A stretch of 64,000 bases of DNA, taken from IMG/VR virus record IMGVR_UViG_3300028577_000006; one strand, 5' to 3'. Origin of the DNA: a virus. Lineage: Duplodnaviria > Heunggongvirae > Uroviricota > Caudoviricetes. The position numbers and the translations under genes were made by a program. Below are positions 8,850 to 30,543 of the stretch, one piece after another (positions within the stretch are counted from its first letter, which is position 1; every line of letters starts with the position of its first letter). The notes under the pieces were generated by a model that was not told the origin of the DNA, made no database searches, and worked only from the letters and a program-made list of their open reading frames with translations.

Positions 8850-9644
8850 TCAGCGGCGCTTCACCCCTACGGGTGAACGCTTTGCTGCCGCCTTGCGCGC
8901 GGCGACGATCGGATCTTCGCTCGAAGCGGGTGACGCTCCCGCCACACCACCGAGCATCGAGACATCGCCAGTCGCCATCGCGTTGACCTCGGCCGCGTTG
9001 AAGAGCGAAGCGCCGGCAGCGCCACGCACGACGCTGCCATACTGCGTGTGCGACATCTGGCGGCTGCGCAGCACAGCCTGACTCGTGGCGCCGTAGAGAG
9101 CTTCGGTGCCCATCTTGCTGCCCTGATATCCCGCCGTTGCGCCCTTGCTGACGCCAAGCGAGTCCCCAGCAGCGAAGGCGTCGATGTTCGCGGCAGCGAA
9201 CACGAAGAGCCAGCCGCCCTCCTCTTGGTGCTCCTTCACCATGGCCCGAAGCTGGGCGGACGTGAACTCCTTCGAAGCGTTCTCGGCGCCATCCGTGTGC
9301 ACGACGACGATCACGCGCTCGGGACGTTCTGCCACGGCCATCGCGTCGATCTTCGTGCCGAGCGAAGTGACAGATCGCCCCAGAGCGTCGTTCAACGCCG
9401 TGTTGCCTCGCGGCACGTACGTCAGCGCCGTGAGGTCAGGCACATCCGCAAGCGGCATGTGCATGAAGTCTTCCTGGTACTCGTGGTCGAACTGAACGAG
9501 TGACACGAAGCATGGCGTCGGGAGCACGCGCTGCTCCGCGATCAGCTTGTTGAACCCGTCGATGACCTGCTGTCGCACGCCCGACATCGACATCGATCGA
9601 TCGAGCACGAACATGATCTCCGTGGAACCCGCAACATCCGTCAT
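8850..9644 (-). CDS. von Willebrand factor A (vWA) domain protein
   Basis: FVLDRSMSMSG DxSxS MIDAS motif; internal ATG at 9644 overlaps stop of upstream small ORF (ATGA). Confidence 0.7.
   Translation of the reverse strand: MTDVAGSTEIMFVLDRSMSMSGVRQQVIDGFNKLIAEQRVLPTPCFVSLVQFDHEYQEDFMHMPLADVPDLTALTYVPRGNTALNDALGRSVTSLGTKIDAMAVAERPERVIVVVHTDGAENASKEFTSAQLRAMVKEHQEEGGWLFVFAAANIDAFAAGDSLGVSKGATAGYQGSKMGTEALYGATSQAVLRSRQMSHTQYGSVVRGAAGASLFNAAEVNAMATGDVSMLGGVAGASPASSEDPIVAARKAAAKRSPVGVKRR
8862..8885. terminator. hairpin GTTCACCC-CTAC-GGGTGAAC at convergent gene junction
   Basis: 8-bp GC-rich stem overlapping the 3' end of the vWA gene at the + / - block boundary. Confidence 0.3.
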
Positions 9645-9772
9645 CGCTTCCTCGCCTTCTTCGTCTTCTTCGCCACCTTCGACACGTACTGAACCAGAGC
9701 TTCGACCGGAAGCCTGATCGACTCGCAGCGATCTTCCATTCGCTTGATCGAGTAACCGCCCTTGAAGTTCAC
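9641..9772 (-). CDS. small basic protein (43 aa, tentative)
   Basis: GTG at 9772 overlaps upstream TGA and its own stop overlaps vWA ATG. Confidence 0.3.
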   Translation of the reverse strand: MNFKGGYSIKRMEDRCESIRLPVEALVQYVSKVAKKTKKARKR

Positions 9773-10176
9773 GTTGGGTGCCTTCCGCTGCGGCGCTCGT
9801 CGAGCGCGGACTGGGCGCTCTTGCCGCACGTATCGCAGTAGCTTTCTGTCTCCGACGTGCCCGCCCCGCAGAAGCGGCACTGCTCATCTCGCATCGGAAC
9901 GATCCGCAACTGTGGCGGCTCCCCTCCGTACTCCATCTTGAACTGTTCACGCGCCTCCTGAAGGCTGAAGGCCTCGACGCCCGTGTGCAGACGCTCGCGC
10001 TCGGTTGGGAAAGCGCGCTGCATGCGATTCGCCATATACGAATCCCGCTCGTGCCAGCTGACGTCGTACCAGCGAGTACGCTCGGCGTTGCGATTGGCGG
10101 CGTCTCCGAGACGCGTCAACTGCCGCTCGATCAACAGAAGAACGGTGCTCGCGTTCGGACGCTTCGGACCTGCCAT
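9769..10176 (-). CDS. hypothetical protein with C-terminal zinc ribbon
   Basis: CRFCG...CDTCG pair. Confidence 0.45.
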   Translation of the reverse strand: MAGPKRPNASTVLLLIERQLTRLGDAANRNAERTRWYDVSWHERDSYMANRMQRAFPTERERLHTGVEAFSLQEAREQFKMEYGGEPPQLRIVPMRDEQCRFCGAGTSETESYCDTCGKSAQSALDERRSGRHPT

Positions 10177-10224
10177 GAGCTAGGACCCTACCGACTGTCA
10201 GACAGCACGTCAACGGCTTCCGAC

Positions 10225-10452
10225 TCACCTGCCGTCCCAGCCTTCGACGCGTGCCAGTTCGAGAAGGTCGACCGGCTCGGGGCCCGTGCCGGCCTGTCGC
10301 CACATCATCACGTGCGCCTCGGCAACGTCAACGAAGCGCACCGGCTCTGACACGTGACCCACGAGCGTCATCCAGCCGCCCGCTGGCTTCCACTCCCAGA
10401 TCGGCGCACAGAGCACGCGCCCGTCCTTCATGTTCACGGTCGCGTCACGCAT
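10225..10452 (-). CDS. hypothetical protein
   Basis: ORF only. Confidence 0.35.
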   Translation of the reverse strand: MRDATVNMKDGRVLCAPIWEWKPAGGWMTLVGHVSEPVRFVDVAEAHVMMWRQAGTGPEPVDLLELARVEGWDGR

Positions 10453-10497
10453 AGAGCGTTCCGTGGGGGATTCGTCGCCTGGTCCGATACTTCGATC

Positions 10498-11241
10498 TCA
10501 CAGGGCGCACAACGCGGCAACAAGATCTTGTTCCGCGGTCCCAGTGACCTCCAGCGTCCACGGCGTCGGCGGCCCGAGCCACGATGCTGGATCAATGCGC
10601 ACGAGCGGCGTGGCGCGCTGCGCTGCACGCGTCGGCAGATCGTTCGCTGGGTACACCGAGCCGGACGTGCCGCAGACGACCACGAGATCTGCTGCCTCCA
10701 CCGCCGCGTAAGCGCGCCGCATGTCGACTGGCTCGCCGAATAGGACCACGTCAGGCCGCGCAGGACGGCCGCACTTCGGACAATCCGGCGCCACGGTGCG
10801 CGGCTCGGCGTCCGGCCACGACGGGTGCTTGCGGCGCTCCTTGGCGCAACGCGTACGAAAGAGCGAGCCATGAAGCTCCACTACGTCTTCGGTGCCGGCC
10901 AAGCGGTCGAGACCGTCGATGTTCTGCGTCACGACCGTCAGTGCCTCGACGCGCCTCGACCAGGCAGCAACCGCACGGTGCGCGGCGTTCGGTCCGTTCG
11001 CGAGCACGGCGCCGCGGATTGGTCCCCATAGCTCCCAGAGGTCGTTCCACCATGCCCGACGCTCGGCCGGATCGCTCATCTTGGCCGGCGGCGGCTTCGA
11101 TCGCTTCTCCCGCTCGGGATGGTCGGTCCAGAGACCACCGGAGCCGCGGTACGTCGGCAGCCCCGACGCCACCGAGAAGCCGGCGCCGGTGACGAGCACG
11201 GGCCTGCGAGCGCGGCGCACGAGCGCTTCGAGATCACTCAT
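10498..11241 (-). CDS. Sir2-family NAD-dependent deacylase/ADP-ribosyltransferase
   Basis: GAGFSVASGLPTYRG, TQNIDGL, two CxxC pairs; internal ATG at 11241; upstream part of ORF overlaps a tRNA. Confidence 0.8.
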   Translation of the reverse strand: MSDLEALVRRARRPVLVTGAGFSVASGLPTYRGSGGLWTDHPEREKRSKPPPAKMSDPAERRAWWNDLWELWGPIRGAVLANGPNAAHRAVAAWSRRVEALTVVTQNIDGLDRLAGTEDVVELHGSLFRTRCAKERRKHPSWPDAEPRTVAPDCPKCGRPARPDVVLFGEPVDMRRAYAAVEAADLVVVCGTSGSVYPANDLPTRAAQRATPLVRIDPASWLGPPTPWTLEVTGTAEQDLVAALCAL

Positions 11242-11311
11242 TCGGGGGCCAGGAATCGAACCTGGATTCGCGGTGCCAAAAACCGATGTCCTGCCATTAG
11301 ACGAACCCCGA
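11241..11311 (-). tRNA. tRNA-Gln (anticodon UUG)
   Basis: cloverleaf with T-arm CCAGG-TTCGATT-CCTGG, anticodon loop TTTTGGC, U1:A72 as in bacterial tRNA-Gln; U7.C66 mismatch shared with the tRNA-Gln(CUG) at 25138. Confidence 0.55.
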
Positions 11312-11314
11312 GCA

Positions 11315-11692
11315 TCACGCCGCGGGGGCTCGTTGCTGCTCGGCCTGAGCCTTCGCGGCGAGCTTCTGCTGGCGGCGCTCAGCGGCACGCGCCTTCACGA
11401 GCGCGCGCTGCTTGGCGTTCTTCTTCGTGTTCGCACGACAGAGCTTGCAGTTGGTCGCGAGCATCGACAGCACCAAACGCGTGCCGTCTTCCGGCCACCC
11501 GCCGTCCGACTCCTGCTCCACCGACACCTTCGACGGCTTCATGCCGGCGGCCTCGGCCATCTGCACGAGATCGACCAAGCTGCCGCCGCAGTCATCGATG
11601 TTGATCGTACACGTGTCCTGAACGCGATTGCGCCAGTCGGCGGAAACGCCGTGGCTCACGTACGGAACGATCTTCTTCTTGGCCACACACAC
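11315..11692 (-). CDS. hypothetical protein
   Basis: ORF between two tRNAs; annotated ATG overlaps tRNA-Glu 3' end by 5 nt, GTG at 11686 is an alternative start. Confidence 0.4.
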   Translation of the reverse strand: MCVAKKKIVPYVSHGVSADWRNRVQDTCTINIDDCGGSLVDLVQMAEAAGMKPSKVSVEQESDGGWPEDGTRLVLSMLATNCKLCRANTKKNAKQRALVKARAAERRQQKLAAKAQAEQQRAPAA

Positions 11693-11758
11693 CGTGGGAG
11701 AATCGAACTCCCGTAGACTGATGGAAAGTCAGTCGTCCTACCACTGGACGAACGGTGC
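11688..11758 (-). tRNA. tRNA-Glu (anticodon UUC)
   Basis: complete cloverleaf: acceptor GCACCGT/ACGGTGT, D GTCC/GGAC, anticodon stem ACTGA/TCAGT loop CTTTCCA, T GGGAG-TTCGATT-CTCCC. Confidence 0.8.
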
Positions 11759-12048
11759 AAAATCTTCGAGCAAGGGTCGCGCACGGGTATGGGCCTCGCG
11801 GCCCGATCTTTTGCAAAAAGGGATAACCGTGTTGCATCGGCTCGAAGATCAGAAACAAAACAGAGCAAGGTTTTGAACGCGGGCGGTTGGGTCGGGTTAT
11901 TAGCCCGATGCATGATTGCGGTAACCCGTGATCGTCGGCTCTGTCGAAAATCCTTTCAGAGATAGTAGCGGACGGTGATAACACAGGCAAGGTGGTGCTG
12001 GACGGGTCAAATGATAGATAACCGTCCAGCTTCGGCCTGTGCGTTAGA
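11759..12048 (-). ncRNA. candidate Y RNA (YrlA-like) locus downstream of rsr
   Basis: 290-nt non-coding, lower-GC, hairpin-rich region immediately 3' of rsr and abutting a tRNA: long-range pairing 11763-11771/11840-11848, hairpins at 11791-11804, 11939-11962, 11997-12030; the only support is position next to rsr. Confidence 0.35.
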
Positions 12049-13803: not shown

Positions 13804-13844
13804 GACGGAACCTCCCAGAACGAATACCCAGAAAACCAGAACAA

Positions 13845-13945: not shown

Positions 13946-14599
13946 CTACTGCTTACGCCGACCGATTCGTTTTCGCGCAATACCATAAGCATCAAGCCAT
14001 TTTCTGATCGTTACGTCAGACACGCCATATTCGCGAGCCAGCGCCAGCGCAGGCTTGTCAGCAACGGCTTCCAACTGCGCTCGCGATGGCTTTGCCACGC
14101 GCTCGGCGCTGTGGGAGCGCTGCCGCGCGCGACCCAAGCGCTCGCTGCTGCAAGCAACACACCGCCGCTTCGCGCCTCCAGCCTTCGTAACTTCGATCCA
14201 CACGTTCGCCGGATCTTCCAAACTGTGTCCGGACTTGCACTCCGTTTTTCGAGAGTTGAGACCAACGAAGCCCTCTCCGCGCCGCAGATTTATTCCGTCG
14301 GTTACCGGCTCTAGGTGAGAGGGCTTCACGCACAGGTGCACGCGACACAGGTGGTCAAGCACTTGCCACTCTTCCAGCGGCAGGCCCGAAGCGATGTACG
14401 CGATCCGGTGCGCGTACCGCGTTTCGTGTGGAGCCAGAATAAACACACCGTACGGCTCCGGGTTCAACCGGTTTTCCTTGCTGCGTGAACTGCCACGCCA
14501 CAGCCAGCAGCCGTTGTCAGCTAACTTCTCGACGAGAGACCAAAAGGCCGCCTTCTGGCCTTCGTCCATGTCACGAATCAGCTGGTCTTTTGCTACCAT
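13946..14599 (-). CDS. HNH homing endonuclease with C-terminal HTH
   Basis: NGCWLWRG ... HRIAY ... HLC motifs of HNH_3; C-terminal DNA-binding helix; sits between tRNA genes. Confidence 0.75.
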   Translation of the reverse strand: MVAKDQLIRDMDEGQKAAFWSLVEKLADNGCWLWRGSSRSKENRLNPEPYGVFILAPHETRYAHRIAYIASGLPLEEWQVLDHLCRVHLCVKPSHLEPVTDGINLRRGEGFVGLNSRKTECKSGHSLEDPANVWIEVTKAGGAKRRCVACSSERLGRARQRSHSAERVAKPSRAQLEAVADKPALALAREYGVSDVTIRKWLDAYGIARKRIGRRKQ

Positions 14600-14606
14600 A
14601 TATGAA

Positions 14607-14691
14607 CGGAGAGCAGAGGACTCGAACCTCAGAGCCTAAGCTCGACGCGGTTTTCAAAACCGCCGCTGCACCTTGCAGACCGTTACTCTCC
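14607..14691 (-). tRNA. tRNA-Ser (anticodon UGA), class II with atypical D-arm
   Basis: acceptor GGAGAGT/GCTCTCC, anticodon stem GCGGT/ACCGC loop TTTGAAA, extra arm GAGC-TTAG-GCTC, T-loop TTCGAGT; D-arm does not fold canonically. Confidence 0.5.
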
Positions 14692-14732
14692 AGGAGCCTG
14701 CCACAGCATTTCGCAGCAGGCAAGAACTTCTG

Positions 14733-14984
14733 TCAGACACTCGTTCCGGCACGTTTTGCGGCGCGACGGATGCGCTTCCTGACGAACTCGGCGACCTCCT
14801 TGGTGTCCGCCAGATCGAGCATGCCGCCGCGGTTCACGCAGCTGTTGTATGGGTGCCAGAACTGGCCGTACTGCAAGAAGTCTTCGGCGTCTGACATCAC
14901 GCAACCACAGCGGCGGCAAACGGCTTTGCGATGCCAGTTCTCGCCGTTCATCTTTCGCATCTTCTCGCTGAGCATGGCGATCAC
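14733..14984 (-). CDS. small zinc-finger protein
   Basis: CRRCGC ... H..C Cys/His cluster. Confidence 0.4.
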   Translation of the reverse strand: MIAMLSEKMRKMNGENWHRKAVCRRCGCVMSDAEDFLQYGQFWHPYNSCVNRGGMLDLADTKEVAEFVRKRIRRAAKRAGTSV

Positions 14985-15092
14985 TCCTTCAGCAGGCCGT
15001 CCCAGTTCCCGCGAATGTAGTCCTTGTACCGGATCTGATTTCCGGAACGGTGGTCGGTGACCTGCCCGTCCTGAGCGCGGATCGTACGCACC

Positions 15093-15666
15093 TTATCGGC
15101 ACTCGCCACTGCCTACCTGCTGCCGGCGACTGTCGGACCGGGCCTGCAAGCTCGCAGCGTCTCGTTGCTCCTGGATGCGCGCTCGGAGGATCTTGTACGC
15201 GATGTCTCTGTTCGCGTGCTGCGAGCGCTCGTTCTCGACGCGCACCTTCAGCCCGGTTGGCTTGTGCGTCATCTGAACAGCAGAGTTCGTCACGTTGCGA
15301 TGCTGGCCACCAGCGCCAGAGCCACGACACGTGATCCACTCGATGTCGCGATCGTCGATGTGGATCTGCGGGCCCTTCGGCTCGTCGAGCACCGCGACCG
15401 TCACCGTCGAGGTCTGCACGCGCCCGCGCTTGTCGTTCGGCGGCACACGCTGCCACCGATGACCACCAGACTCTTGCGCGAAGGCCGCGCTCGCTCCCTT
15501 GCCGCTCGCCTGGAACGACAAGAAGCCGGAACGCTCTTCGACTAGAGCGTAGTCAAAGACCCCTCCGCTCCATCATCCGCGCGTACACGCCGAACTGCTC
15601 GACCACGAGGGCCTTCGCATCGTCGCCACCTTCGCCAGCACGAATCTCTACGATCACCGTTTCCAT
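15093..15666 (-). CDS. truncated class-I release factor homolog (RF2/PrfH-like, GGQ domain) requiring +1 frameshift
   Basis: ORF 15553..15831 (from internal ATG 15666, SD GAGGAGG) encodes ETVIVEIRAGEGGDDAKALVVEQFGVYARMMERRGL and stops at UGA; the +1 frame continues as DYALVEERSGF...HRWQRVPP...RGSGAGGQHRNVTNSAVQMTHKPTGL...ENERSQHANR (ORF 15093..15521), together matching RF2 domains 2-3 incl. GGQ; lacks domain 1 and has PPN in place of SPF. Confidence 0.7.
15550..15572 (-). promoter_or_regulatory. prfB-type programmed +1 ribosomal frameshift site (GGAGGGG-U-CUU UGA C)
   Basis: mRNA reads AUG AUG GAG CGG AGG GGU CUU UGA CUA C: SD-like GGAGGGG 1 nt upstream of slippery CUU U followed by in-frame UGA C, same heptamer as E. 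coli prfB. Confidence 0.7.
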
Positions 15667-15676
15667 CACGACCTCC

Positions 15677-16573
15677 TCAGAGAACCACACGGGCGCGAAG
15701 CCCGTCCAACATGTACTTGATGTCGCGCTCCACCAAGCGTCGAAGCCCCTCGCACTCGGTGCACACGGTACGCGTCCGAAGATCTTCGCCGTGTTCGCAG
15801 TACGGCGGCACACGTCTGATCGAGAAGTCATCGTCGAGACTGAGCCTCAGCGTCGCGCCGTCGAAGTCGTGTCCGATCAAACGATGTCGAAAGACAGCGC
15901 TTTGAACGTCTACATGCTCGACCACGTGACACTTCGGCGTGCTGGCACTGCCCTTCTGACGGATCTCCACGAACGCACCAGGCCGGAGCGACTGCCACGT
16001 CAGCCGCTTCTCCTCGGCCGCTTCCCGCTTTCGACGACTCTCCTCTTCTTCGTACTCCAGAGCTTCGCGCGCCCATTCAGCGCGCTCCTCCGGCGTGTTC
16101 TCGTCGGGGAACTCCTTCAGCATCTCCGGCGCGCAACGCTGCGCGACCTTCTCGTTCTCACTCTTCTCGTGCTGCGTGCGCTTGCCGCGCTTGTAGACCT
16201 CGCGGTAGCTGTAGACGCCCGTCTTCGAATCGCATGACCAGGAGTGGCCGACGATCTCGACCTTGATGTCGAGCCCGTCGAAGAGCGCGCGTCCCTTCCG
16301 GAAGTCGTCGGTGAACTTGCTCTTCTTCTCGAAGAACAACCCCGGAGTGCCGCTGAAGTTGCCGAGTAGCTCGACGTACTTGTCCGTCTCGCGCAGCGCG
16401 ACGTTGTACCAGATGCCACCCGATCCGTACGCGTGGTTGCCGAGCTTGCTCACCATCGGCCACGAGTAGTAGCCATCGCGTCGTCCGCCAAAGGCTGGCT
16501 TAGTGGCCTTCTTCTTCCACTTCGCGCGATCTGGTCCGCTGACCCGAACTCGGTACTGCCACGTGTCGCCCAT
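15677..16573 (-). CDS. hypothetical protein (298 aa)
   Basis: stop overlaps SD of release-factor homolog; protein-like composition. Confidence 0.5.
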   Translation of the reverse strand: MGDTWQYRVRVSGPDRAKWKKKATKPAFGGRRDGYYSWPMVSKLGNHAYGSGGIWYNVALRETDKYVELLGNFSGTPGLFFEKKSKFTDDFRKGRALFDGLDIKVEIVGHSWSCDSKTGVYSYREVYKRGKRTQHEKSENEKVAQRCAPEMLKEFPDENTPEERAEWAREALEYEEEESRRKREAAEEKRLTWQSLRPGAFVEIRQKGSASTPKCHVVEHVDVQSAVFRHRLIGHDFDGATLRLSLDDDFSIRRVPPYCEHGEDLRTRTVCTECEGLRRLVERDIKYMLDGLRARVVL

Positions 16574-16759: not shown

Positions 16760-16911
16760 ATCACGCCGGCACTGTTGCTCAATCAACCGTTTCTCTCGCT
16801 TCTTGAAGCGACGCTTGACTCGTCGCTTCTCCGCGGCGGGCGCGGTCTCCCACCACTCAGGATTCTCATGCTTTGGATTGTGCAGAAGATGCTTCTTCAT
16901 GACTGTGCCAG

Positions 16912-16995
16912 CGGAAATCGGAGGTCTCGAACCCCACGGCCGTAACCGCGACATCGTGTAGCACACGAGCCCAGCACCTCGCTGGTTCGACTTCC
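16912..16995 (-). tRNA. tRNA-Ser-like (anticodon GCU), class II, atypical
   Basis: acceptor GGAAGTC/GATTTCC, D CCAG/CTGG, T-loop TTCGAGA; anticodon arm ambiguous (loop GTGCTAC). Confidence 0.45.
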
Positions 16996-19000: not shown

Positions 19001-19516
19001 TCACGCCGCCGCCGCAAGATACGGACGCCACGTCTCGGGCACCGTGTTCAGGTCGAACTTCTTGCTGACGATCGGAAGCCAGTCGGGCTTCCTCGGAACA
19101 CGGAGAAGCGTCATGCCAGCTTCGGCCGGCGTGCGGTTCGCCTTCTTCGCGTTGCACACGTAGCAGGCCATCACGATGTTCTCCCACTCGGTCTTGCCAC
19201 CACGCGAACGCGGAAGCACGTGGTCGTAGTTCAGGCCGCGCGGCTCGAACGAGACGCGACAGTACTGGCACGTGTGACCGTCACGCAGCAGGACGTTCTG
19301 CCGCGAGAACTTGATCGAGACCTTGCGGACCCGACCCTTGCGCAGCTTCCGGATCACCGACGGCATCTGCATGATGACGCTCGGCGAGCGAAGCACTTCC
19401 GCAAGCTCCTCGACGACCTCGGCCTTGCTGTCGTAGAGCATGCACACGGCACGCTCCCAGCTGATGATCCGCTCCGGTCTGTAGAACATGTCCAGCACCA
19501 GTACTCTGTTTTCCAT
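19001..19516 (-). CDS. HNH endonuclease (McrA-like)
   Basis: CQYC ... NYDHVLPRSRGG ... WENIVMACYVCNAKK. Confidence 0.75.
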   Translation of the reverse strand: MENRVLVLDMFYRPERIISWERAVCMLYDSKAEVVEELAEVLRSPSVIMQMPSVIRKLRKGRVRKVSIKFSRQNVLLRDGHTCQYCRVSFEPRGLNYDHVLPRSRGGKTEWENIVMACYVCNAKKANRTPAEAGMTLLRVPRKPDWLPIVSKKFDLNTVPETWRPYLAAAA

Positions 19517-19699: not shown

Positions 19700-20662
19700 A
19701 TGCCGATTCTCTACGCCACCGACCCTCGTCGCCTCGGCTACGTGTGCGACGACTACGACATGCCAGTCCGCGATCTGCTCACGGACAAGTGCTACCCGAA
19801 CTACTGCGTGGCCGAAGCGGCCGGCGTGAAGAACTGGGACTACGAATGCAACATCGACATTCGTTTCCCGGCCCCGATCGACGAAGCGCAGGCGGCCCCT
19901 GCGGGCACGTTCGTCTACGGCGGCGGCGATGATGGCAGTGGATGGGATGGCGGCAGCAGCTGGATCGGCGGTTCTCCGTGGCGCCGCCGTCGACCGGGCG
20001 CGCCGCCAAGCGGCGGGGGCCGCAGCGGTGGCGGCGGACCGGGCGGCACTGACCCGTCAGCATCCCCACCCAGCACGCCGCCTGGGCGCTCTGTCGACTG
20101 GAGACCCAGTCCCGGTCGCACGATCTTCCGGGGCGCCAGCACGCCAAGCAGTGGCAGCGGGATCCACACGAACCCCGCCGGCACCACCGGCGGCGGAGTC
20201 ACGCTGGTCGGGGACGGAACACAGAGCACCAACTCCACGCTCGCAACGACACCGGGCCGTGGCGGAGCAACGCTCATCGGCGACGGGACCCAGGCCGGCG
20301 GCAGCACGCTCGCGCGCGCGATGCAGCAGATGCAGCTCGTACCGCAGCTCCAGCGTGCGGCACCCATGCGGGAGACCACGCAGTACCAGGCCGCGCCTCA
20401 GCACTCCACCGCCGTCACCACGCGGCGCGACGACCGGCAATACCAGGCAAGCTCGCGCCCGTCGCAGACCGCGCTCACGACCTCGTCGGGCAAGGCCACC
20501 CTCACGACCGCACAACGCAGCGGGCTGACCAGCCGTGGAGGCGGAGGGCGAGTCTCGCGAGCAATGCACGGCCTCGGCGACTTCACGACGCAGACGCTTC
20601 CGGGCGCCGTGTTGCTGTTCGGCGGAGCGCTGATCGTCGGCAGCTACCTCGCGACGCGCTGA
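19700..20662 (+). CDS. low-complexity Gly/Ser/Thr/Pro-rich protein with C-terminal TM anchor
   Basis: preceded by GTGCTAGCAT motif and a 6-bp hairpin; several alternative-frame ORFs overlap (GC-rich low complexity), so moderate confidence. Confidence 0.4.
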   Translation: MPILYATDPRRLGYVCDDYDMPVRDLLTDKCYPNYCVAEAAGVKNWDYECNIDIRFPAPIDEAQAAPAGTFVYGGGDDGSGWDGGSSWIGGSPWRRRRPGAPPSGGGRSGGGGPGGTDPSASPPSTPPGRSVDWRPSPGRTIFRGASTPSSGSGIHTNPAGTTGGGVTLVGDGTQSTNSTLATTPGRGGATLIGDGTQAGGSTLARAMQQMQLVPQLQRAAPMRETTQYQAAPQHSTAVTTRRDDRQYQASSRPSQTALTTSSGKATLTTAQRSGLTSRGGGGRVSRAMHGLGDFTTQTLPGAVLLFGGALIVGSYLATR

Positions 20663-21189
20663 GCTTGGCTTCGCAGCGCGGCGTTCATCTGCGCGTGAGC
20701 AGCCGTACACTCGGCGCACCGACAGCCGCACGTGTACTTCGAATGCGTACCACACTTGGCTCGTCGATCGGGACTCGCTGCCCAGGCCTTTTTTGCTGAC
20801 GATGCTCCAGCGCACCGTTTTCCGCAGAACGCATCGGCAGTGGCGCCTCGCTTCTTGGCGGCAGCGCGTGCAGCGCGCCGTTCGCGCAGGAACACCACAC
20901 CACACTCTGCGCACGTAGTGGCGCAATACTTGTCCTCTTCCGGAAGACGTTTGTGATCTGCTGTGTGCTGAGCGGTAGACTTTATTTCCAGGTTGTCCGG
21001 CCTGTTATCACCTTTGTTCTCGTTTTGATGGTGCACTTCCTCGTCGCGGCGCAGCGCTCGGCCTAAGTGCGCTTCCATGACGAGACGATGTACGTACAGG
21101 GTGGCGCGCGATCCGTCCGACCTTTTCACCGAAAAGTATCGGTAACCGTTTGGCATGGTGTACGGTCCGTAACGCTTTTCTTCCGTCAT
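20644..21189 (-). CDS. HNH homing endonuclease
   Basis: YVHRLVMEAHLG ... EVHHQNENKGDNRPDNLE HNH_3 motif; annotated ORF start (21252) would overlap tRNA-Leu, so internal ATG 21189 used. Confidence 0.7.
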   Translation of the reverse strand: MTEEKRYGPYTMPNGYRYFSVKRSDGSRATLYVHRLVMEAHLGRALRRDEEVHHQNENKGDNRPDNLEIKSTAQHTADHKRLPEEDKYCATTCAECGVVFLRERRAARAAAKKRGATADAFCGKRCAGASSAKKAWAASPDRRAKCGTHSKYTCGCRCAECTAAHAQMNAALRSQAQRVAR

Positions 21190-21224
21190 TTTGCGCGTAT
21201 ACCATGTCACCACGTTTCTGTAAA

Positions 21225-21308
21225 CTGGGATCGACAGGAGTTGCACCTGCACGGGCTTTCGCCCACACGGCCCTCAACCGTGCGTGTCTGCTAGTTCCAC
21301 CACGATCC
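21225..21308 (-). tRNA. tRNA-Leu (anticodon GAG), class II; T-loop TGCAACT
   Basis: D region GTGGTGGAACTAGCAGACACG resembles bacterial tRNA-Leu; anticodon stem CACGG/CCGTG loop TTGAGGG; G at position 55. Confidence 0.65.
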
Positions 21309-21481: not shown

Positions 21482-21576
21482 CAGACAAAACGATCGTCAG
21501 CGACACGCTGAAGCAAACGAACGGCAGGCTCACAGCGCTCCGGCGTCCTCTCCACTGTCCTCATGCTGACGATCTA

Positions 21577-21648: not shown

Positions 21649-21715
21649 GAAGAACACTGCGGTTCTGATCTCTCCTGAACGGATGCCTGAGCACGTAGCC
21701 TTCCAGGTCAGAACC

Positions 21716-21787
21716 ATCGCTACGGACGGAGTCGAACCGCCTTCTGCCACCCGTATGAGAGGTGTGCCTGACCGTCAGGTACGTAGC
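21716..21787 (-). tRNA. tRNA-Met or Ile2 (anticodon CAU), elongator type, short D-loop
   Basis: acceptor CGCTACG/CGTAGCG (C1-G72 paired), anticodon loop CTCATAC, T GGCGG-TTCGACT-CCGTC. Confidence 0.55.
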
Positions 21788-21826
21788 GTCATTGCGGCCC
21801 CGAGAGTCGCACTCGGTTGTCCTGGG

Positions 21827-22282
21827 TTATGAGCCCTGGCTGGCATCTCCACCTGCACCGCACAAGCTCTGCTCTTCAGACACGAAGATCGGTCCGTGAT
21901 GGCCTAGCCTCGCGCCACACGACCTTGAACACGCCACTGTCATCGTCTTGTTTCTACCGGCCCTAAGACGCAGTACGTACTCCTTTATTTCGAAGGGCTT
22001 CTTGCACCAGGCACAAAACCTGGTCACGGAAGGCTGTTCCTGGTGATGGCGCGAATGCTCGCCACGCATGACGACTTCCAGATTGCTTTCGTCGTTGTTC
22101 GTCTTGTCGTGATCAGCGTGGTGCACCACTTCACCCGGAAGCAGGAGCCGGCCAAGGCAGTTCTCGGCGATGACGCGGTGCAGCGGGTACAACCCCTTCG
22201 CGTTGCGTTTTGGATGCGGCGGATCGGTCCGCGCATACTTGTACCCGCCACCCTTGCACGTCGATGTGATCTCGAAGAGCAT
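21827..22282 (-). CDS. HNH endonuclease
   Basis: HHADHDKTNNDESNLEVVMRGEHSRHH HNH motif; C-terminal Cys pairs; embedded in tRNA array. Confidence 0.7.
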   Translation of the reverse strand: MLFEITSTCKGGGYKYARTDPPHPKRNAKGLYPLHRVIAENCLGRLLLPGEVVHHADHDKTNNDESNLEVVMRGEHSRHHQEQPSVTRFCAWCKKPFEIKEYVLRLRAGRNKTMTVACSRSCGARLGHHGPIFVSEEQSLCGAGGDASQGS

Positions 22283-22526: not shown

Positions 22527-22653
22527 AAGGTTTCTAGCAAGGTTCGTAAGATGGCATGATGACGGCTGCTCTGCCACCTGAGCTACATCCGCACGGGCGG
22601 AAGGTTGGACTCGAACCAACGACATGCTGTTTGGGTAACCATCTGACTTCGGC
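22527..22653 (-). pseudogene. degenerate tRNA-like pair: 58-nt acceptor+T-arm element (22596..22653) and tRNA 5'-half-like segment (22527..22595)
   Basis: 22596..22653 has T-arm GTTGG-TTCGAGT-CCAAC and acceptor-like ends but no D/anticodon arms; 22527..22595 begins GCGGATGTAGCTCAGGTGGCAGAGC (canonical acceptor-5' + D-arm) then loses tRNA structure. Confidence 0.35.
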
Positions 22654-22659
22654 TAGAAG

Positions 22660-22728: not shown

Positions 22729-22866
22729 AAGTTCTCTGGCAAGGGTCGTCGTTGGATATTACGGCGTTCTACTCTTGAACTACGCCCTCCATAGAAAGGG
22801 AAGGCGGCTGGAGTCGCACCAGCGTTACCGGCTCCATATGCGGTAACCAACAACATCGGCCAGAGA
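22729..22866 (-). other. structured 138-nt spacer with T-arm-like hairpin (GCTGG-TGCGACT-CCAGC) and 7-bp hairpin GTTACCG/CGGTAAC; no tRNA fold found
   Basis: hairpins seen in sequence; acceptor pairing absent. Confidence 0.3.
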
Positions 22867-22937
22867 AGCGATCGGCGAGAATCGAACTCGCGTCTCCTGG
22901 GTGGAAGCCAGGGGCCAAGCCACTTGACCACAATCGC
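22867..22937 (-). tRNA. tRNA-Gly (anticodon UCC)
   Basis: anticodon stem CCTGG/CCAGG loop CTTCCAC, T GCGAG-TTCGATT-CTCGC. Confidence 0.8.
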
Positions 22938-23324: not shown

Positions 23325-23475
23325 AAACAAAACTTGGGTGGATAGACCGGATTTTCACCGGCGCGCGCCGAGCTTACTGACTCGCCGCTCTGAACTGGGT
23401 CTCGTTTCCGGGCCGTTCCTCTCCCGTACTCCTCGTCCCAGCCGGATGCTGAACATCGCCTGAGCTACTATCCAC
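23325..23475 (-). ncRNA. ~151-nt tRNA-like structured RNA (8-bp acceptor-like stem GTGGATAG/CTATCCAC, D-arm-like TAGCTCAGG, T-arm-like CCGG-TGAAAAT-CCGG)
   Basis: occupies the slot between tRNA-Gly and tRNA-Ala; internal hairpins GGATG-TTCAG-CATCC etc.; no canonical anticodon arm. Confidence 0.35.
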
Positions 23476-23548: not shown

Positions 23549-23585
23549 GTTGCACTTCTGTCCGACACTCGCTACGCTCGCCGGC

Positions 23586-23987
23586 ATGGAACTTCCCGAC
23601 AAGATGCAGAAGGAACTCGCTGACGGCCTCCTGATCGCGTATCGCGTGAAGGAAAGCAAGCTCGACTACTCGCTGATGAACCGGCCCGAGCCGAACCTGA
23701 CCAGTCTCGACGACCACGCTCTGGCCACCGCCATCGTCCTCGCCGGGCGCGAGTTCAAGATCGTGGTCGACGACACCATCATGAAGAGCGAGCGGATCGC
23801 CCGAGACGACGGTCGGACCGTGACGTACAACGAGGCGATCGACATCAACTGGGAAGACCGCATCATCCGATCCACCCGTCGCAAGGACATGACGCTCGAC
23901 GTTCTCGCCGGCATCGTGACCCAGCTGGTGCGCGATGCCGCCGCGCCCACCGGCAGCCCCAGGCCGAGCCCGGGCAAAGCGAACTAG
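23586..23987 (+). CDS. hypothetical protein inside tRNA array
   Basis: ORF 23550..23987; internal ATG 23586; protein-like composition. Confidence 0.45.
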   Translation: MELPDKMQKELADGLLIAYRVKESKLDYSLMNRPEPNLTSLDDHALATAIVLAGREFKIVVDDTIMKSERIARDDGRTVTYNEAIDINWEDRIIRSTRRKDMTLDVLAGIVTQLVRDAAAPTGSPRPSPGKAN

Positions 23988-24059: not shown

Positions 24060-24122
24060 TTGGTTCCGCTGGTTGAATGGCCATCCCGCGTCGGCCCATG
24101 GAACCAACGCGCGCGCAGCGGA

Positions 24123-24519: not shown

Positions 24520-24611
24520 TTACAAGTAGGCAAGGGTTGAAGGTCGGAAATGGGCCTTTCGGCCCAGTCTTTGGTATTGGTAAAGAGATAACCAACCTTC
24601 TTCGGCCTACA

Positions 24612-24961: not shown

Positions 24962-24964
24962 ATA

Positions 24965-25052
24965 CTGACCCTGAAGGAATCGAACCTCCGCATGCCTTAT
25001 GAGGGCCTCTCGGTTAACAGCCGAGCGCTCTGGCCAACTGAGCTAAGGGTCA
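24965..25052 (-). tRNA. atypical 88-nt tRNA with anticodon GUU (Asn) and a 19-nt extra arm
   Basis: acceptor TGACCCT/AGGGTCA, canonical D GCTC-AGTTGGCCA-GAGC, anticodon stem CTCGG/CCGAG loop CTGTTAA (U33, A37), then AGGCCCTCATAAGGCATGC inserted before T-arm GGAGG-TTCGATT-CCTTC. Confidence 0.55.
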
Positions 25053-25058
25053 ATACGT

Positions 25059-25110
25059 GGCTGGCGCCAAGATCGGCGCCAGCCTTCTTCTTCGGTTCTT
25101 ATTCAGTTTT
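25059..25110 (+). terminator. intrinsic-terminator-like hairpin (10-bp stem GGCTGGCGCC/GGCGCCAGCC) followed by T-rich tract, + strand orientation
   Basis: perfect 10-bp GC stem, 6-nt loop, then TTCTTCTTCGGTTCTTATTCAGTTTTC. Confidence 0.45.
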
Positions 25111-25137
25111 CAAGGCTGCACTAAGCAGCACGAACCA

Positions 25138-25580: not shown

Positions 25581-25591
25581 GTTCTCTCTGA

Positions 25592-25673: not shown

Positions 25674-25675
25674 AG

Positions 25676-25709
25676 AAACGAAAAAGGGCACTCGGTTTCC
25701 CGGGTGCCC
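25676..25709 (-). terminator. rho-independent terminator (GGGCAC-N12-GTGCCC then UUUUUCGUUUCU) immediately 5' of tRNA-Tyr
   Basis: 6-bp GC stem followed by U-tract on the - strand. Confidence 0.55.
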
Positions 25710-26085: not shown

Positions 26086-26556
26086 CTACCGGCGCAGGTG
26101 ATTGCGGGACCACCACCGTTCTGACGGGAACTGCTCCTCGCAGATCTTCCACTGCTCCACGGCGTCGGTAATCCAGGCCTTCTTCTGCACGTCGTACAGA
26201 AAAAGTGGCTTCCGATTTCCGCGTGTGCACTTCGCCGCGAAGAGCACGTCCCGCCCTCGGCCGGCGTCTTCCGTGTCGAAGATGACGACGAGCTGATCGA
26301 CAGACTTCACGAAGGCGCGCGTCGGTTCACGACCTTCTTCCATCCACGTGTGCGCCTCTTCCCAAGGCGCGCGGAGAATCTCCGGCGGAGATTTGCAGAA
26401 GCGGCGCGCAGCATGCTCAACCAAGCGACCCGTCCCCCGCTGTCCGCGACTCACGATCGTGAGTGCCTCTCCGTGACGCTCTACCAGCCGCTGCACGCAG
26501 CGATCGAGCAGCGGCGCATCGTCGAACAGGCGCGATCCGATGACTCCGACGCGCAT
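26086..26556 (-). CDS. SLOG/DUF2493-like Rossmann-fold protein (YspA-related, tentative)
   Basis: MRVGVIGSRLF ... LTIVSRGQRGTG pattern. Confidence 0.45.
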   Translation of the reverse strand: MRVGVIGSRLFDDAPLLDRCVQRLVERHGEALTIVSRGQRGTGRLVEHAARRFCKSPPEILRAPWEEAHTWMEEGREPTRAFVKSVDQLVVIFDTEDAGRGRDVLFAAKCTRGNRKPLFLYDVQKKAWITDAVEQWKICEEQFPSERWWSRNHLRR

Positions 26557-26583
26557 CAGCCCCGACTTGCCGCGATCGGCTCG

Positions 26584-28283: not shown

Positions 28284-28306
28284 GACTCTCTCCCGCCTTC
28301 GTCGCC

Positions 28307-28549
28307 TCAGTTCGGATCGTTCGCTATCAACCAGTTCGCAAAACGCACGCCGTGCCCTTCCGTGCCACCGATTTCATCCACGATCTGCATGAAGCGCTGC
28401 GCTATTTCGTTGTGACGAACGACGTCTTCGATCGTCTGACCTTCCGCCATCAGCCAGCGCAGATACTGACCCAGCGAAACCTTGTCTGCCAAGTCCATCG
28501 TTACGTGCAGTGATTCCTTGTCTGCGCCTACGTCAATCTTAGCCCTCAT
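28307..28549 (-). CDS. small hypothetical protein (80 aa) upstream of rtcB
   Basis: internal ATG 28549 with SD AAGGTGG; upstream part of annotated ORF is Arg-rich. Confidence 0.45.
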   Translation of the reverse strand: MRAKIDVGADKESLHVTMDLADKVSLGQYLRWLMAEGQTIEDVVRHNEIAQRFMQIVDEIGGTEGHGVRFANWLIANDPN

Positions 28550-28560
28550 GCTGCCACCTT

Positions 28561-30543
28561 TCACGTCGACCTCCAAAAGATCTCCTGCGCCTCCACGCAA
28601 AGCTCGTTGAGCTTCGCCACGTCTGGCGCGTGCCGCAACGTTGACTCCTTGTACAGCGTCTGCATCTCTGCGTCCTGCTGTTCGGCCCACTCGACCAGCC
28701 TCTCGTACGGCCACTCGCCTGCGCGGATCGCGAGAAGCTCCTTCGCGTCCGGACGCCGCACGATGACACCTTGGCCCTCCAAGATCTCGCGACACATGCG
28801 CAAGAGTCTGACGAGGTGCATACCGTGTTTGGTGTTGCCGTGGATCGCGATCTTGCCTTCGCGCCGTGTCACCAGGATCTCGTTAGGCACCGTGAAGCAA
28901 ACGATTCTTGCGCCAGTCATCCGCAACAAGTCTAGTGACTGGCTGTCCGGAGCCAGACGCACGTGCGCCGCTATACGTCGGTCACCAACGTAGACCTGAT
29001 ACATGGGCCCTTTACCACCCTCGTAAACGTACGGCCCCCATACCTGCGACACGATGCCCGACGACACGCACATCACCTGGACATCATCAGCCAGTTGCTT
29101 CGACGAGGTGTAGTACACGCGGCTGTGTTCGCGTTCCGTGCCATCCCCGGCGACCATCACTTCCAGCAGCAAATCGACCTGTCGCCTGGAAAGCTCGCGC
29201 GTCCAGTCAGGCAACCGCAACGATGCAGATCCAACGCCACAGCACCGCTCGACCCAACCAGCCCGAGTGCGGTCAGCAATCGTCCACACGTGCTCATCGC
29301 ACGCAGCCGAACGGTGCTCGTCGGCTTGGTGCGTGTACGCGTACCTCCGGATGGCATCCGGAAACTTCACCATCAACCCGTCCATGTACGGCTGCTGACG
29401 GCCTCCGACCTTCTGCGAGATCCGCAGCACAGATGCGCTTCCGTCCGCCAGACGCTTACCCACGCACCCTTCGGTGACGTAACAGCCCAATAGAACAAGA
29501 TCGTCGTCTGACACCGGATACTCGACTTCGGTCGCATCAGCAGTCAGCCGCGTATGAAACCCGGACCGCCGATCGGCCAAGAGATCACGCAACGGCCGCA
29601 GCGTCCAATCGGCACGGTCCGCGGCGAACTCCCAAGAAAACCCGTTGGTTTTGCTGCGGTGTGCCGGCGACACCAACATTCGATGGTTCATGGTCACGGC
29701 ACAGTTGGAGTGCTGCGGATGCAAAACGGCGATCTCCCCGTCGAACGGCTTGGCCACGCGCTCGGTGAAGCCCTGGTACTCGATGCGACCCGTACGCGGA
29801 TTCAACGTTCCCACGCGCGCGTCGTCGGGGATGTCGTCATACCGCTTCCAGCCGCTTTCGGTCAGGAACTCGGTGTCGTCCAAGTAGCAGTCGTAGCCAT
29901 GCTGCGCTTCGAGCGCCGCGCGCTTCTGGTTCCGATCCGTCTTCCATCGCTCGTGCGAGTTCCACGCATCGAGCGCGGCCTTGTACTTCTTCTCCTTCGC
30001 CACGAGGTCCATGACGTTGGCGTCGCCGGCCATGCCTTCGGCGGCCATCTTGTCGAAGGCGCCCATCATGTCGGGCGTGATCTTCATCTCGGTGGAGAGG
30101 CCGTACTCCTTGCGCGTCGGCTTGTGGTCTGGCGGGTTGAGCAGGTAGCCACGATGCGTGCGGATCCGCTTCAGTTGGCTGACCGCATACCCGCTGAACG
30201 TGTGCCGCGCCTTCTTCGACAAGAAGAGGTCGCGGTTCTCACGGATCAGTCGTCCTGCCGGATGCTGGAAGAGCACGTCCGAGTCATCGACGAAGAGCAC
30301 CTCGATGATGTTCGGGTTGCAGTCGGCAGCCAGGTTGCAGAACTTCCGGATGTCGTAAACGACCTTGTCTTCCGGCTCCATCTGCTGGTGCTGCTCGAAG
30401 CTGTACGCGAAGCCCAGCACGAAGTTCTTCGGCGAGACCGCGAAACCCTTCGTGTCGATGTCCGACGTCGGCAAGCTGGTGCCGTACGCGTGGCTGCCGT
30501 GCCGCGCGAGGAAGACGGTGTGCTTGGCGATGTCGAAGTGCAT
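28561..30543 (-). CDS. Pol-beta-superfamily nucleotidyltransferase (RNA-repair-associated type) interrupted by an intein
   Basis: N-extein RHGSHAYGTSLPTSDIDTKG (GS..DxD NTase motif); intein CYLDDTEFLTESGW ... two LAGLIDADG blocks (LLGCYVTEG, LLLEVMVAGDG) ... VCFTVPNEILV...IAIHGN followed by Thr. Confidence 0.7.
   Translation of the reverse strand: MHFDIAKHTVFLARHGSHAYGTSLPTSDIDTKGFAVSPKNFVLGFAYSFEQHQQMEPEDKVVYDIRKFCNLAADCNPNIIEVLFVDDSDVLFQHPAGRLIRENRDLFLSKKARHTFSGYAVSQLKRIRTHRGYLLNPPDHKPTRKEYGLSTEMKITPDMMGAFDKMAAEGMAGDANVMDLVAKEKKYKAALDAWNSHERWKTDRNQKRAALEAQHGYDCYLDDTEFLTESGWKRYDDIPDDARVGTLNPRTGRIEYQGFTERVAKPFDGEIAVLHPQHSNCAVTMNHRMLVSPAHRSKTNGFSWEFAADRADWTLRPLRDLLADRRSGFHTRLTADATEVEYPVSDDDLVLLGCYVTEGCVGKRLADGSASVLRISQKVGGRQQPYMDGLMVKFPDAIRRYAYTHQADEHRSAACDEHVWTIADRTRAGWVERCCGVGSASLRLPDWTRELSRRQVDLLLEVMVAGDGTEREHSRVYYTSSKQLADDVQVMCVSSGIVSQVWGPYVYEGGKGPMYQVYVGDRRIAAHVRLAPDSQSLDLLRMTGARIVCFTVPNEILVTRREGKIAIHGNTKHGMHLVRLLRMCREILEGQGVIVRRPDAKELLAIRAGEWPYERLVEWAEQQDAEMQTLYKESTLRHAPDVAKLNELCVEAQEIFWRST
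28834..29889 (-). mobile_element. intein (~352 aa) with LAGLIDADG homing-endonuclease domain
   Basis: Cys1 block A, block F-like VCFTVPNEILV, C-terminal HGN then +1 Thr; two LAGLIDADG motifs. Confidence 0.65.

Follow-up and report, generated by a model that had tools for sequence, protein, structure and literature searches.

The locus described here raises the question of why genes for RNA repair, translation termination and tRNA supply lie close together in a virus genome, and whether they serve a common purpose. The DNA analyzed, 64,000 nt of the IMG/VR virus record IMGVR_UViG_3300028577_000006, is referred to as the window. On its minus strand the original prediction had placed the Ro60 ortholog Rsr, the RNA ligase RtcB, an intein-bearing Pol-beta nucleotidyltransferase, a release factor (RF) homolog with a GGQ motif, Sir2, a vWA protein, an S24 peptidase, a SLOG-like protein and about 42 tRNAs. 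All of these genes were found on that strand at 8850-30657, the SLOG-like assignment being tentative, and hidden Markov model (HMM) scans with Pfam and NCBIfam recovered TROVE, RtcB, RlaP, Sir2 and RF-1 domains. The analysis added four HNH genes, six Y RNA-like genes, a Band-7 gene nearby and the finding that the frame of the RF gene is broken twice. The region is most likely a translation-maintenance island of a large mobile genome, that of a jumbo phage of a high-GC host, and we hold with fair confidence the overall reading in which a tRNA set, RlaP and RtcB, an Rsr-Y ribonucleoprotein (RNP) and a recoded short RF keep translation running. The island is best seen as a loose one-strand cluster of separately recurring modules (tRNA array with RF, Rsr with Y RNAs, RlaP with RtcB) and not as one operon. 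The coordinates of all features are given in Table 1.

The short RF is encoded in three frame segments. The open reading frame (ORF) that carries the RF-1 domain (15093-15521) begins in the middle of the PCRF domain. Upstream of it, a 37-codon ORF with a good ribosome-binding site encodes METVIVEIRAGEGGDDAK..., the start of RF domain 2, and ends with ...GGAGGGGUCUUUGAC. When both +1 shifts were applied, the reconstructed protein had 227 aa with RF-1 and PCRF domains and the GGQ motif kept, and it scored 197.6 bits against the prfA model (positions 113-342 of 361), compared with 154 bits for the middle segment alone. Domain 1 is missing from the product and across the whole RF family. Comparison with solved structures gave E-values of 1e-41 for RF1, 1e-25 for RF2 and 1e-12 to 1e-13 for RF-H. 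The decoding elements of RF1 are kept (Q72, a PxT-type loop and HTS/QTS); for the tripeptide, canonically PxT in RF1, the window has PPN and most other members have PPT. A canonical RF1 was ruled out by the absent domain 1, with PPN as the tripeptide and GGQ present. RF2 scored below RF1 throughout, and the match to ArfB was limited to the GGQ motif (33 bits).

At codon 38 the RF ORF is broken by GGAGG-GGU-CUU-UGA-C, which has the same architecture as the +1 frameshift cassette of prfB. The cassette recurs without change in the uncultured huge phage LR745208.1 and also occurs in the closest IMG/VR relatives and in L223, a related contig (Logan run SRR10761721). L223 is syntenic throughout the region and its RF protein is ∼85% identical to that of the window. 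The protein database holds a large family of such RFs of 190-230 aa, about half of which are N-terminally truncated ORF calls; the leaders of these calls read ..GG(V/D/R)F(D/E), the +1-frame footprint of NNC UUU GAN. A profile-based scan resulted in 80 viral RF loci, the longest contig having 482 kb; a +1 shift at codon 37/38 is needed in 72 of these loci. Scanning one genome per GTDB species resulted in at least 80 further RF loci (L224-L303), overwhelmingly in Myxococcota, and 75 of the 80 are frameshifted. These genomic loci come from both chromosomes and metagenome-assembled genomes, among them the complete chromosomes of Archangium gephyra (NZ_CP102578.1, RF at 3.54 Mb) and Minicystis rosea (CP016211.1, RF at 5.21 Mb).

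Conservation of the shift site was analyzed in 154 non-redundant loci, 74 viral and 80 genomic, on huge-phage contigs (often beside tRNA arrays) and in Myxococcota genomes. CTT_T(GA/AG/AA) stands at the same codon in 139 of them, with the consensus CGGAGG-NGT-CTT-TGA-C, and the cassette lies at codon 37/38 in 65 of the 74 viral and 73 of the 80 genomic loci. GGAGG is located exactly at -8 to -4 in 76 of the 139, and some Shine-Dalgarno (SD)-like element is present in 106. The stop at the shift site is TGA in 98 loci, TAG in 36 and TAA in 4. Judged from this conservation, the first shift is probably programmed. No description of a frameshifted short RF of phages or Myxococcota was found in the literature searched, the coverage of which cannot prove novelty; the presence of "release factor 1 and 2" in huge phages is on record (PMC7162821).

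With prfB the cassette shares an SD-like element 3 nt 5' of CUU_UGA_C, an in-frame stop, continuation in the +1 frame and very high conservation (PMC12421855). The carrier gene differs, being RF1-like and without domain 1. The position differs as well: the prfB site lies at about codon 26 in domain 1, whereas the site described here (codon 38, approximately RF1 residue 150) falls in domain 2, domain 1 being absent from the protein, and is therefore not positionally homologous to it. In a survey of 8,164 prfB genes the stop was TGA in 98.6%, TAA in a few and TAG in none (PMC12421855), whereas UAG occupies the shift site in 36 of the 139 loci of the short RF and UAA in 4. A product that decodes like RF1 would not itself read a UGA gate, which would be left to the RF2 of the host. 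Since the decoding loop is RF1-like and the gate mostly UGA, autoregulation in the manner of prfB does not fit. In the genomic set, PPT tends to accompany a TAG site, and PPN or PPG a TGA site (Fisher p = 0.0006, with phylogeny ignored); in the viral loci no association of stop type and tripeptide was found, and we treat the association as a lead only.

These observations may be joined in the following proposal. A ribosome pausing at the internal UGA would slip +1 on CUU_U, aided by GGAGG, the SD-like element placed 3 nt before it. Only upon this slip would the short RF be made. Its supply would thereby be coupled to the slowness of stop-codon clearance, and it would add RF1-type termination capacity once termination becomes limiting. 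In full, we tentatively propose, with a little less than even confidence, an undescribed family of domain-1-less, RF1-like RFs that resides in Myxococcota chromosomes and in huge phages, where it rides with tRNA arrays, and that is expressed by a +1 shift of prfB architecture in domain 2. The gate, which is mostly UGA but UAG in roughly one member in four, would act as a sensor of a shortage of host RF2 or RF1 and would switch on a phage terminator when ribosomes queue at stop codons; the copy in the window, with its additional CGA_UAA_G, could be double-gated. Such a family would apparently be a second, widespread use of the textbook prfB cassette in another gene family and at another position. 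UAG at the shift site, never seen in prfB, makes the link between stop codon and autoregulation directly testable in a new system, and the cassette points to termination capacity as a quantity that phages monitor.

Among the 80 viral loci, tRNAs lie within 6 kb of the short RF in 47, up to 37 in number, and a transfer-messenger RNA (tmRNA) gene is adjacent in two, both huge-phage contigs (L155, 5218-5576; L169, 6669-7020). The 80 loci in bacterial genomes showed no conserved gene neighbors. Cultured actinophages yielded no homolog of the short RF. The occurrence in Myxococcota hints that the phage of the window infects Myxococcota and that the gene has moved between host and phage. Myxococcota are thus a possible host, and a host lead for a clade of uncultivated huge phages.

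The second frame break, CGA UAA G, occurs in the window's copy of the gene. A net deletion of 2 nt and two C-to-T changes, which create the TAA, fall within the RGDK motif; G-x-RGDK-x-RT is in a single frame in all homologs, and the break is lineage-specific, being absent from L223 and from every other homolog. No SD-like element was found upstream, and re-pairing in the P site from CGA to GAU is impossible. An assembly error was rejected as its cause, because 8 independent assemblies agree on the break. Of the 67 ORF ends predicted for the window, 50 are TGA, 16 are TAG and a single one is TAA, namely this break. It is probably a recent lesion that truncates the RF, with the chances roughly even against low-level recoding. 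Whether the RF of the window is a decaying pseudogene with no part in the island is a question on which we are evenly divided: the deletion and substitutions in a near-invariant motif, their restriction to this lineage and the missing stimulator speak for decay. Against it stand the intact first cassette, start codon, ribosome-binding site, GGQ motif and decoding loop, the 37 codons past the break, which differ from L223 and L006 almost only synonymously, and the fixation of the allele in all 8 assemblies. The original prediction had brought in PrfH-RtcB pairs as established repair systems. On such a reading the RF would be a PrfH-type factor that rescues ribosomes whose rRNA a nuclease has cut, and the RtcB close by would reseal that rRNA. 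This mechanism is established for PrfH-RtcB2 (PMC9304027, PMC12829566), and the window shares with that module a domain-1-less RF paralog with GGQ and an RtcB in the same region. The RF nevertheless reached only 81.8 bits with the PrfH model TIGR03072 (cut-off 166.65; 197.6 with prfA), its structural match is far better to RF1 than to RF-H (E 1e-13) and it retains the RF1 elements of codon recognition. RtcB is not of the RtcB2 type (TIGR03073 149.8 bits, cut-off 271.8) and lies 11.6 kb from the RF; of 80 viral loci only one has an RtcB gene no more than 6 kb from the RF, and of 80 genome loci searched to 3 kb none has. As both HMM cut-offs were missed and the genes do not adjoin, the two are not a PrfH-RtcB2 pair, and we regard a PrfH-type role as very improbable.

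Rsr is real and intact, and the Y RNAs, which had merely been implied for it, were located as six motif-bearing elements. The protein scored 452 bits with the NCBIfam equivalog model, below the strict cut-off of 900, and its identity to Ro-like proteins annotated in phages is 41-44%. With permissive settings, Rfam returned three matches, a stem-bulge RNA (sbRNA) hairpin behind rsr and two YrlA RNAs within the tRNA array. The hairpin, Y1, scored 37.0 bits with the nematode sbRNA family RF01656 (gathering score 38). Stem-bulge RNAs are homologs of Y RNAs. The YrlA matches (RF02553), Y4 with 36.8 bits (E 7e-5) and Y5 with 30.4 bits, are both under the gathering score of 69; they flank tRNA-Cys and gave full-length YrlA alignments with T-arm-like and D-arm-like hairpins. 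Y1 to Y3 stand in tandem directly after rsr, and Y4 to Y6 lie within the tRNA array, 9-12.5 kb from rsr.

The six elements have a common signature. On the 5' side the lower stem is followed by GCCGANG, an upper stem of 8-9 bp ending in GG, and UUAYC; on the 3' side (A/C)CCUUGC precedes the return of the lower stem. The pattern GCCGANG-N5-12-GGTTAYC occurs six times in the window, always on the minus strand, where 0.06 occurrences are expected. The motif corresponds to the Ro-binding element GNCGAAN0-1G of bacterial YrlA, and phage Y RNAs beside Ro60 have already been published (PMC4201824). Five of the six elements fold better than shuffled controls (z-scores -2.8 to -6.1). When the six lower stems were aligned, 48 of 48 cells were paired and four positions were double-changed, a covariation score reached by 0 of 500 shuffles; the alignment was anchored on the motif and so leans towards the structure. 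L223 carries orthologs of Y1 to Y5 at the same places, with compensatory lower-stem changes in Y1, Y2, Y4 and Y5, the lower stem of Y1 being fully compensated. A scan of IMG/VR found the motif directly beside Rsr homologs in 17 of 120 fetched loci, in up to three tandem copies; most of the 120 matches are chance and only these 17 are informative. No close relatives came out of a search of IMG/VR with Rsr. On this evidence from motif, fold and covariation the Rsr-Y RNA module is genuine and belongs to a type already known, and what is unusual is the number of paralogs and their siting as units of a tRNA array. Ends that abut tRNAs suggest maturation by the tRNA-processing pathway, and the six are natural sequence variants of one Ro-binding scaffold available for study.

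The claim of an RtcB with an intein-bearing Pol-beta protein beside it held: both genes are intact and adjacent, with RlaP immediately upstream of RtcB and a single 89-aa ORF between them. In an alignment to 2EPG the RtcB motifs MPDVHLGKG, GVDIGCG, GGGNHF, HSGSRNIG and SHGAGR are intact, and the protein is 65% identical to a Stenotrophomonas phage RtcB. The intein junctions of RlaP, marked by a slash, are ...HGYD/CYLDDTEF... and ...IAIHGN/TKHGMH..., and in the translation the C-terminal half resumes past the intein. Intein-bearing RlaP homologs are found in Pectobacterium phages and cluster C1 mycobacteriophages. An adjacent RNA ligase is the defining context of the RlaP family. RlaP extends the 3' ends of damaged RNAs by one or two nucleotides (PMC12776372).

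The estimate of about 42 tRNAs proved reasonable, with 37 firm tRNAs, three weak candidates and the two tRNA-like Y RNAs; a near-complete set is borne out, as 19 amino acids are covered on one strand. The three weak candidates coincide with firm tRNAs of the same identity at syntenic positions of L223. Between tRNA-Gly(GCC) and tRNA-Ala(GGC) lies a tRNA-like element of 151 nt (23325-23475, minus strand) with an 8-bp acceptor stem, a D-loop-like GUAGCUCAGG, a T arm, an encoded CCA and ∼70 extra internal nt. The only tRNA that ARAGORN makes of it is a forced tRNA-Trp containing a 41-nt intron, and the element is missing from the syntenic L223. The tRNA-Asn(GUU) (24964-25053, minus strand; Rfam tRNA 61 bits) has 90 nt, which is unusually long for class I. 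Four minus-strand spacers of 60-90 nt (21484-21576, 21650-21716, 24060-24122 and 25054-25137) have the potential for long terminal stems, as in GAUCGUCAGC...GCUGACGAUC with UUUU behind it. They matched no known family and may be processing or termination signals. An antisense ORF of 145 aa with high GC3 (23550-23987, plus strand) lies between tRNA-Val(GAC) and tRNA-Ala(GGC); it has no family match, and L223 has a 133-aa ORF in the same place and orientation.

We infer the activities of all island products from the identities, motifs, RNA structures, conservation and linkage observed. In the translation-maintenance reading, the host would cleave or deplete tRNAs after infection and ∼40 phage tRNAs would resupply them. 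RlaP would put back one or two trimmed 3' nucleotides and RtcB would reseal breaks with 2',3'-cyclic phosphate and 5'-OH ends. Rsr, loaded by six Y RNA paralogs, would form an RNP that handles misfolded or damaged structured RNA. The Y RNAs would be transcribed and processed as units of the tRNA array, and the two that mimic tRNA could serve as decoys or adaptors. A counter-defense and RNA-repair purpose is plausible and has already been proposed for jumbo phages (PMC7824862).

Several observations weigh against this reading. Within 6 kb of the RF, RlaP, like RtcB, occurs in 1 of 80 viral loci and Rsr in 0 of 80; in the window itself, Rsr, RtcB and the RF lie 1-13 kb apart with HNH genes between them. 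The same genes are often unlinked in other phages, as in Sinorhizobium phage Phosso, where Rsr lies among tail genes. The YrlA matches of Y4 and Y5 remain under the Rfam gathering score. The short RF has an RF1-like decoding loop (PxT; PPN in the window) though its gating stop is usually UGA, and the window's copy, broken in a near-invariant motif without a recognizable stimulator, is possibly non-functional here. Finally, the window has no recognized phage structural gene. Three further explanations were considered. One is that tRNAs and an RF1-like factor tune host translation to the codon and stop usage of the phage late in infection, with Rsr and RtcB as routine RNA quality control. TAG, which is read only by RF1, ends 24% of the window ORFs (TGA 75%); RFs, tmRNA and translation factors are common in huge phages and have been interpreted as sustaining translation (PMC7162821); and the RF family also occurs in Myxococcota chromosomes without a defense context. 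RtcB and RlaP, on the other hand, act on nuclease-type RNA ends, which arise mainly from ribotoxins and anticodon nucleases (PMC7824862, PMC12776372). We find a pure supply role doubtful yet worth serious consideration, and supply and counter-defense are not mutually exclusive.

A second explanation, that the tRNA region is an accretion hot-spot where accessory genes and homing endonucleases gather, so that co-location reflects tolerance of insertions or co-transfer and not cooperation, is in our judgment unlikely. It would account for four HNH genes and one intein in 22 kb, for the differing HNH content of the window and L223, for the 151-nt tRNA-like insertion that L223 lacks, for the many interspersed ORFans, for the RF family being seldom near RtcB or Rsr elsewhere and for an Rsr unlinked to tRNAs in Phosso. 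It does not sit well with the independent recurrence of the sub-modules, namely Rsr with Y RNAs, RlaP with RNA ligase (PMC7824862), RF with tRNA arrays and, in Gordonia phage Forza, Rsr with a tRNA array, nor with a single strand and a single theme, RNA and translation, for all genes. The genes are also not unlinked host insertions, since they are set in a one-strand tRNA set whose layout is syntenic in L223. The third explanation makes the element a megaplasmid or chromosomal island of a high-GC bacterium. Among ∼40 window ORFs no virion structural or packaging gene was recognized (PHROG and Pfam scans; tblastn of the 966-aa and 432-aa proteins), the RF and S24-like families are both present in Myxococcota chromosomes, and similar suites of translation genes are possible on large plasmids (PMC7162821). 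As no structural gene was recognized in the 64-kb window, relatives and gene content are the basis for assigning it to a phage. Loci related to that of the RF (54-75% identity) were found on viral contigs of 94-392 kb in IMG/VR, phage proteins are the best matches for RtcB, the RlaP-intein, the vWA protein (phrog_7371) and a RecT-like protein (phrog_2319), a dense tRNA array intermixed with HNH genes is a hallmark of phages, and the source contig has at least 259 kb. A phage origin of the region is therefore likely from the IMG/VR relatives, the phage-type best matches and the tRNA array with its HNH genes, and a non-phage element is rather improbable.

The G+C content is 59-67% along the whole window. 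Genes were called by third-position G+C and cross-checked with gene calls on metagenomic copies. A nucleotide search of the island against 50,697 phage records returned short tRNA and RtcB fragments only and no close cultured relative. Exact-protein look-ups found proteins of the window on metagenomic contigs of several JGI and ENA assemblies, the longest of 258,975 bp. Outside the island, a 774-aa protein (51542-53866, minus strand) matches phrog_2319; its sole annotated relative, in jumbo phage Tunturi_5 (26% identity), is labeled a RecT-like ssDNA-annealing protein, and other matches are in jumbo phages of Vibrio, Aeromonas, Ralstonia and Salicola. A 498-aa protein (45987-47483, minus strand) has an ice-binding-like domain (PF11999, 125 bits). 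A plus-strand cassette at ∼36750-37703, seen in gene calls of the identical contigs L002 and L003, is set within the minus-strand block and has a weak HicB-like UPF0150 ORF, a weak HicA-like toxin ORF (37021-37203) and a DUF192 protein (37314-37703).

Among the remaining genes of the island, the start of the vWA gene is probably internal, since its ORF overlaps orf135 (9769-10176). Sir2 scored 193 bits with the NCBIfam NAD-dependent deacylase subfamily, under its cut-off, and the gene is called in L013. In the region where the window carries Sir2, L223 has a 508-aa ORF with a weak Cas12f1-like/TnpB domain (14238-15764), 3' of Rsr and the Y RNAs, which suggests transposon-associated turnover at this end of the island. 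The 298-aa ORF next to the RF had no Pfam, NCBIfam or PHROG match. The gene for the SLOG-like protein is present, and its assignment is tentative: Pfam YAcAr scored 17.1 bits (cut-off 28.2), PF10686 was found in 1 of 5 homologs, and the top Foldseek matches of an AlphaFold2 model (pLDDT 69.6) were DprA, TT1465/LOG, ShosA and a Moco carrier, with E-values of 0.009-0.09. The predicted S24 peptidase likewise stands as a gene with conserved family motifs and a Pfam score under the cut-off (17.6 bits, cut-off 23.3). Its family has ∼1000 homologs (at least 60% identity) of ∼100 aa with invariant GNSMxP and LVK motifs (YLHLVK lysine motif), which correspond to the Ser-Lys dyad of S24/S26 peptidases. 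Several homologs of at least 60% identity carry PF00717, and NCBI names one an S24/S26 peptidase. In 9 huge-phage loci (among them L151, L154, L163, L182, L184, L188, L189 and L206) an S24-like homolog of 40-57% identity occurs within 6 kb of the short RF, often directly upstream of it. The family also occurs in bacterial chromosomes, e.g., that of Nannocystis. The Band-7 gene lies just upstream of RlaP with two ORFans between, and its membership in the island is uncertain.

Table 1. Features of the island and its surroundings (window coordinates).
Feature	Position	Strand	Evidence
vWA-domain protein	8850..9950	-	Pfam VWA 28 bits (cut-off 23.8); phrog_7371 183 bits
Sir2-family protein (CobB-like sirtuin), 247 aa	10498..11241	-	Pfam SIR2 128.2 bits, model positions 1-180 of 180
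tRNA array, 37 firm tRNAs, 19 amino acids	11241..25674	-	ARAGORN; Rfam
Y3, 11-bp lower stem	11761..11850	-	Abuts tRNA-Glu(UUC); motif GCCGAUG...GGUUAUC...CCUUGC; z-score -3.4
Y2	11859..11945	-	Motif; tandem 3' of rsr; L223 ortholog with compensatory lower-stem change
Y1, 62-nt stem-bulge hairpin	11981..12042	-	6 nt past rsr stop; fold z-score -6.1
Rsr/Ro60 ortholog, 584 aa	12049..13803	-	Pfam TROVE 151.9 bits and vWA_Ro60 199.7 bits, both above cut-off
HNH homing-type endonuclease	13946..14599	-	Pfam HNH_3, HNH_5, HNH
Short RF1-like release factor gene, three frame segments	14989..15666	-	15666-15556, 15554-15096, 15094-14989
Second frame break CGA UAA G	15092..15098	-	Inside near-invariant G-x-RGDK-x-RT motif
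prfB-type +1 cassette GGAGGGGUCUUUGAC	15552..15566	-	SD-like GGAGG, 3-nt spacer, CUU UGA C
298-aa ORF	15677..16573	-	Syntenic in L223; stop 8 nt 5' of RF start, inside RF ribosome-binding site
Weak tRNA candidate Ser-GCT	16911-16995	-	Relaxed ARAGORN
Three further HNH endonucleases	19001-19516, 20644-21252, 21827-22282	-	Pfam HNH_3, HNH_5, HNH
Weak tRNA candidate Met-CAT (second)	21792-21862	-	Relaxed ARAGORN
Y4, tRNA-like domain (YrlA type)	22532..22658	-	Between tRNA-Arg(UCU) and tRNA-Cys; Ro motif
Y5, tRNA-like domain (YrlA type)	22732..22867	-	Between tRNA-Cys and tRNA-Gly(UCC); z-score -4.7
Y6	24526..24610	-	Between tRNA-Asp and tRNA-Pro(UGG); motif; z-score -4.3; not conserved in L223
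Weak tRNA candidate Phe-GAA	24695-24767	-	Relaxed ARAGORN
SLOG-like 156-aa protein, possible YAcAr/SLOG fold	26086..26556	-	Weak matches
Stand-alone S24/S26-type Ser-Lys peptidase domain, 108 aa	26809..27135	-	Overlaps RtcB stop codon
RtcB RNA 3'-phosphate/5'-OH ligase, 387 aa	27120..28283	-	Pfam RtcB 397.6 bits, model positions 1-426
RlaP nucleotidyltransferase with LAGLIDADG intein	28561..30543	-	Pfam RlaP 65.6 bits (cut-off 23); LAGLIDADG_3 23 bits
Band-7/SPFH protein	31499..32467	-	Pfam Band_7 100 bits; phrog_200

Among bacterial systems, the island is closest in content to the rsr-yrlB-yrlA-rtcB-rtcA operon of Salmonella (Chen et al., 2014, PMC4201824; Hughes et al., 2020, PMC7790460), with which it shares Y RNAs with GNCGAAN0-1G directly 3' of rsr, at least one putatively tRNA-like Y RNA and an RtcB on the same strand. 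It has six Y RNAs where Salmonella has two, three of them 9-12.5 kb from rsr, and its YrlA matches are below the Rfam gathering score. RtcA and RtcR domains were absent from every ORF scanned, and RtcB lies 13.3 kb upstream of rsr, across the tRNA array. For these two reasons the island is not an operon of the rsr-yrlBA-rtcBA type; the original prediction had cited Rsr-YRNA-RtcB operons as established repair systems.

Gene order was compared with that of Phosso, which has Rsr, and of Stenotrophomonas phage ANB28, which has RtcB, and no neighborhood in common was found. Among cultured actinophages, the cluster C1 mycobacteriophages (Bxz1, ET08, HyRo) and Forza share with the island ∼30 tRNAs and genes for Rsr, RtcB and an intein-bearing RlaP (gp3). 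The Rsr gene of Forza is directly followed by ∼30 tRNAs and a tmRNA, with a band-7 gene nearby. The protein identity to these phages is only 35-45%, the C1 genes are dispersed over more than 100 kb and a homolog of the short RF is missing. The RNA-repair systems surveyed in jumbo phages (PMC7824862, section 3.4.9) share tRNA arrays with RtcB, RlaP and a TROVE protein with a tRNA-like partner RNA, and Sir2 and YAcAr-SLOG were reported in the same genomes. Their proposed role is to counter host RNases that attack tRNA (PMC7824862, Iyer et al., 2021). The survey differs in having Pth2 as a peptidyl-tRNA hydrolase, and it makes no mention of a bacterial-type RF, a frameshift or multiple Y paralogs inside a tRNA array. 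The island thus belongs to a published class, as one more and unusually compact case of jumbo phages that would keep translation running under RNA-targeting defense by means of tRNAs, RtcB, RlaP and Ro/Y RNPs, while the recoded short RF is apparently undescribed and is the part worth following up.

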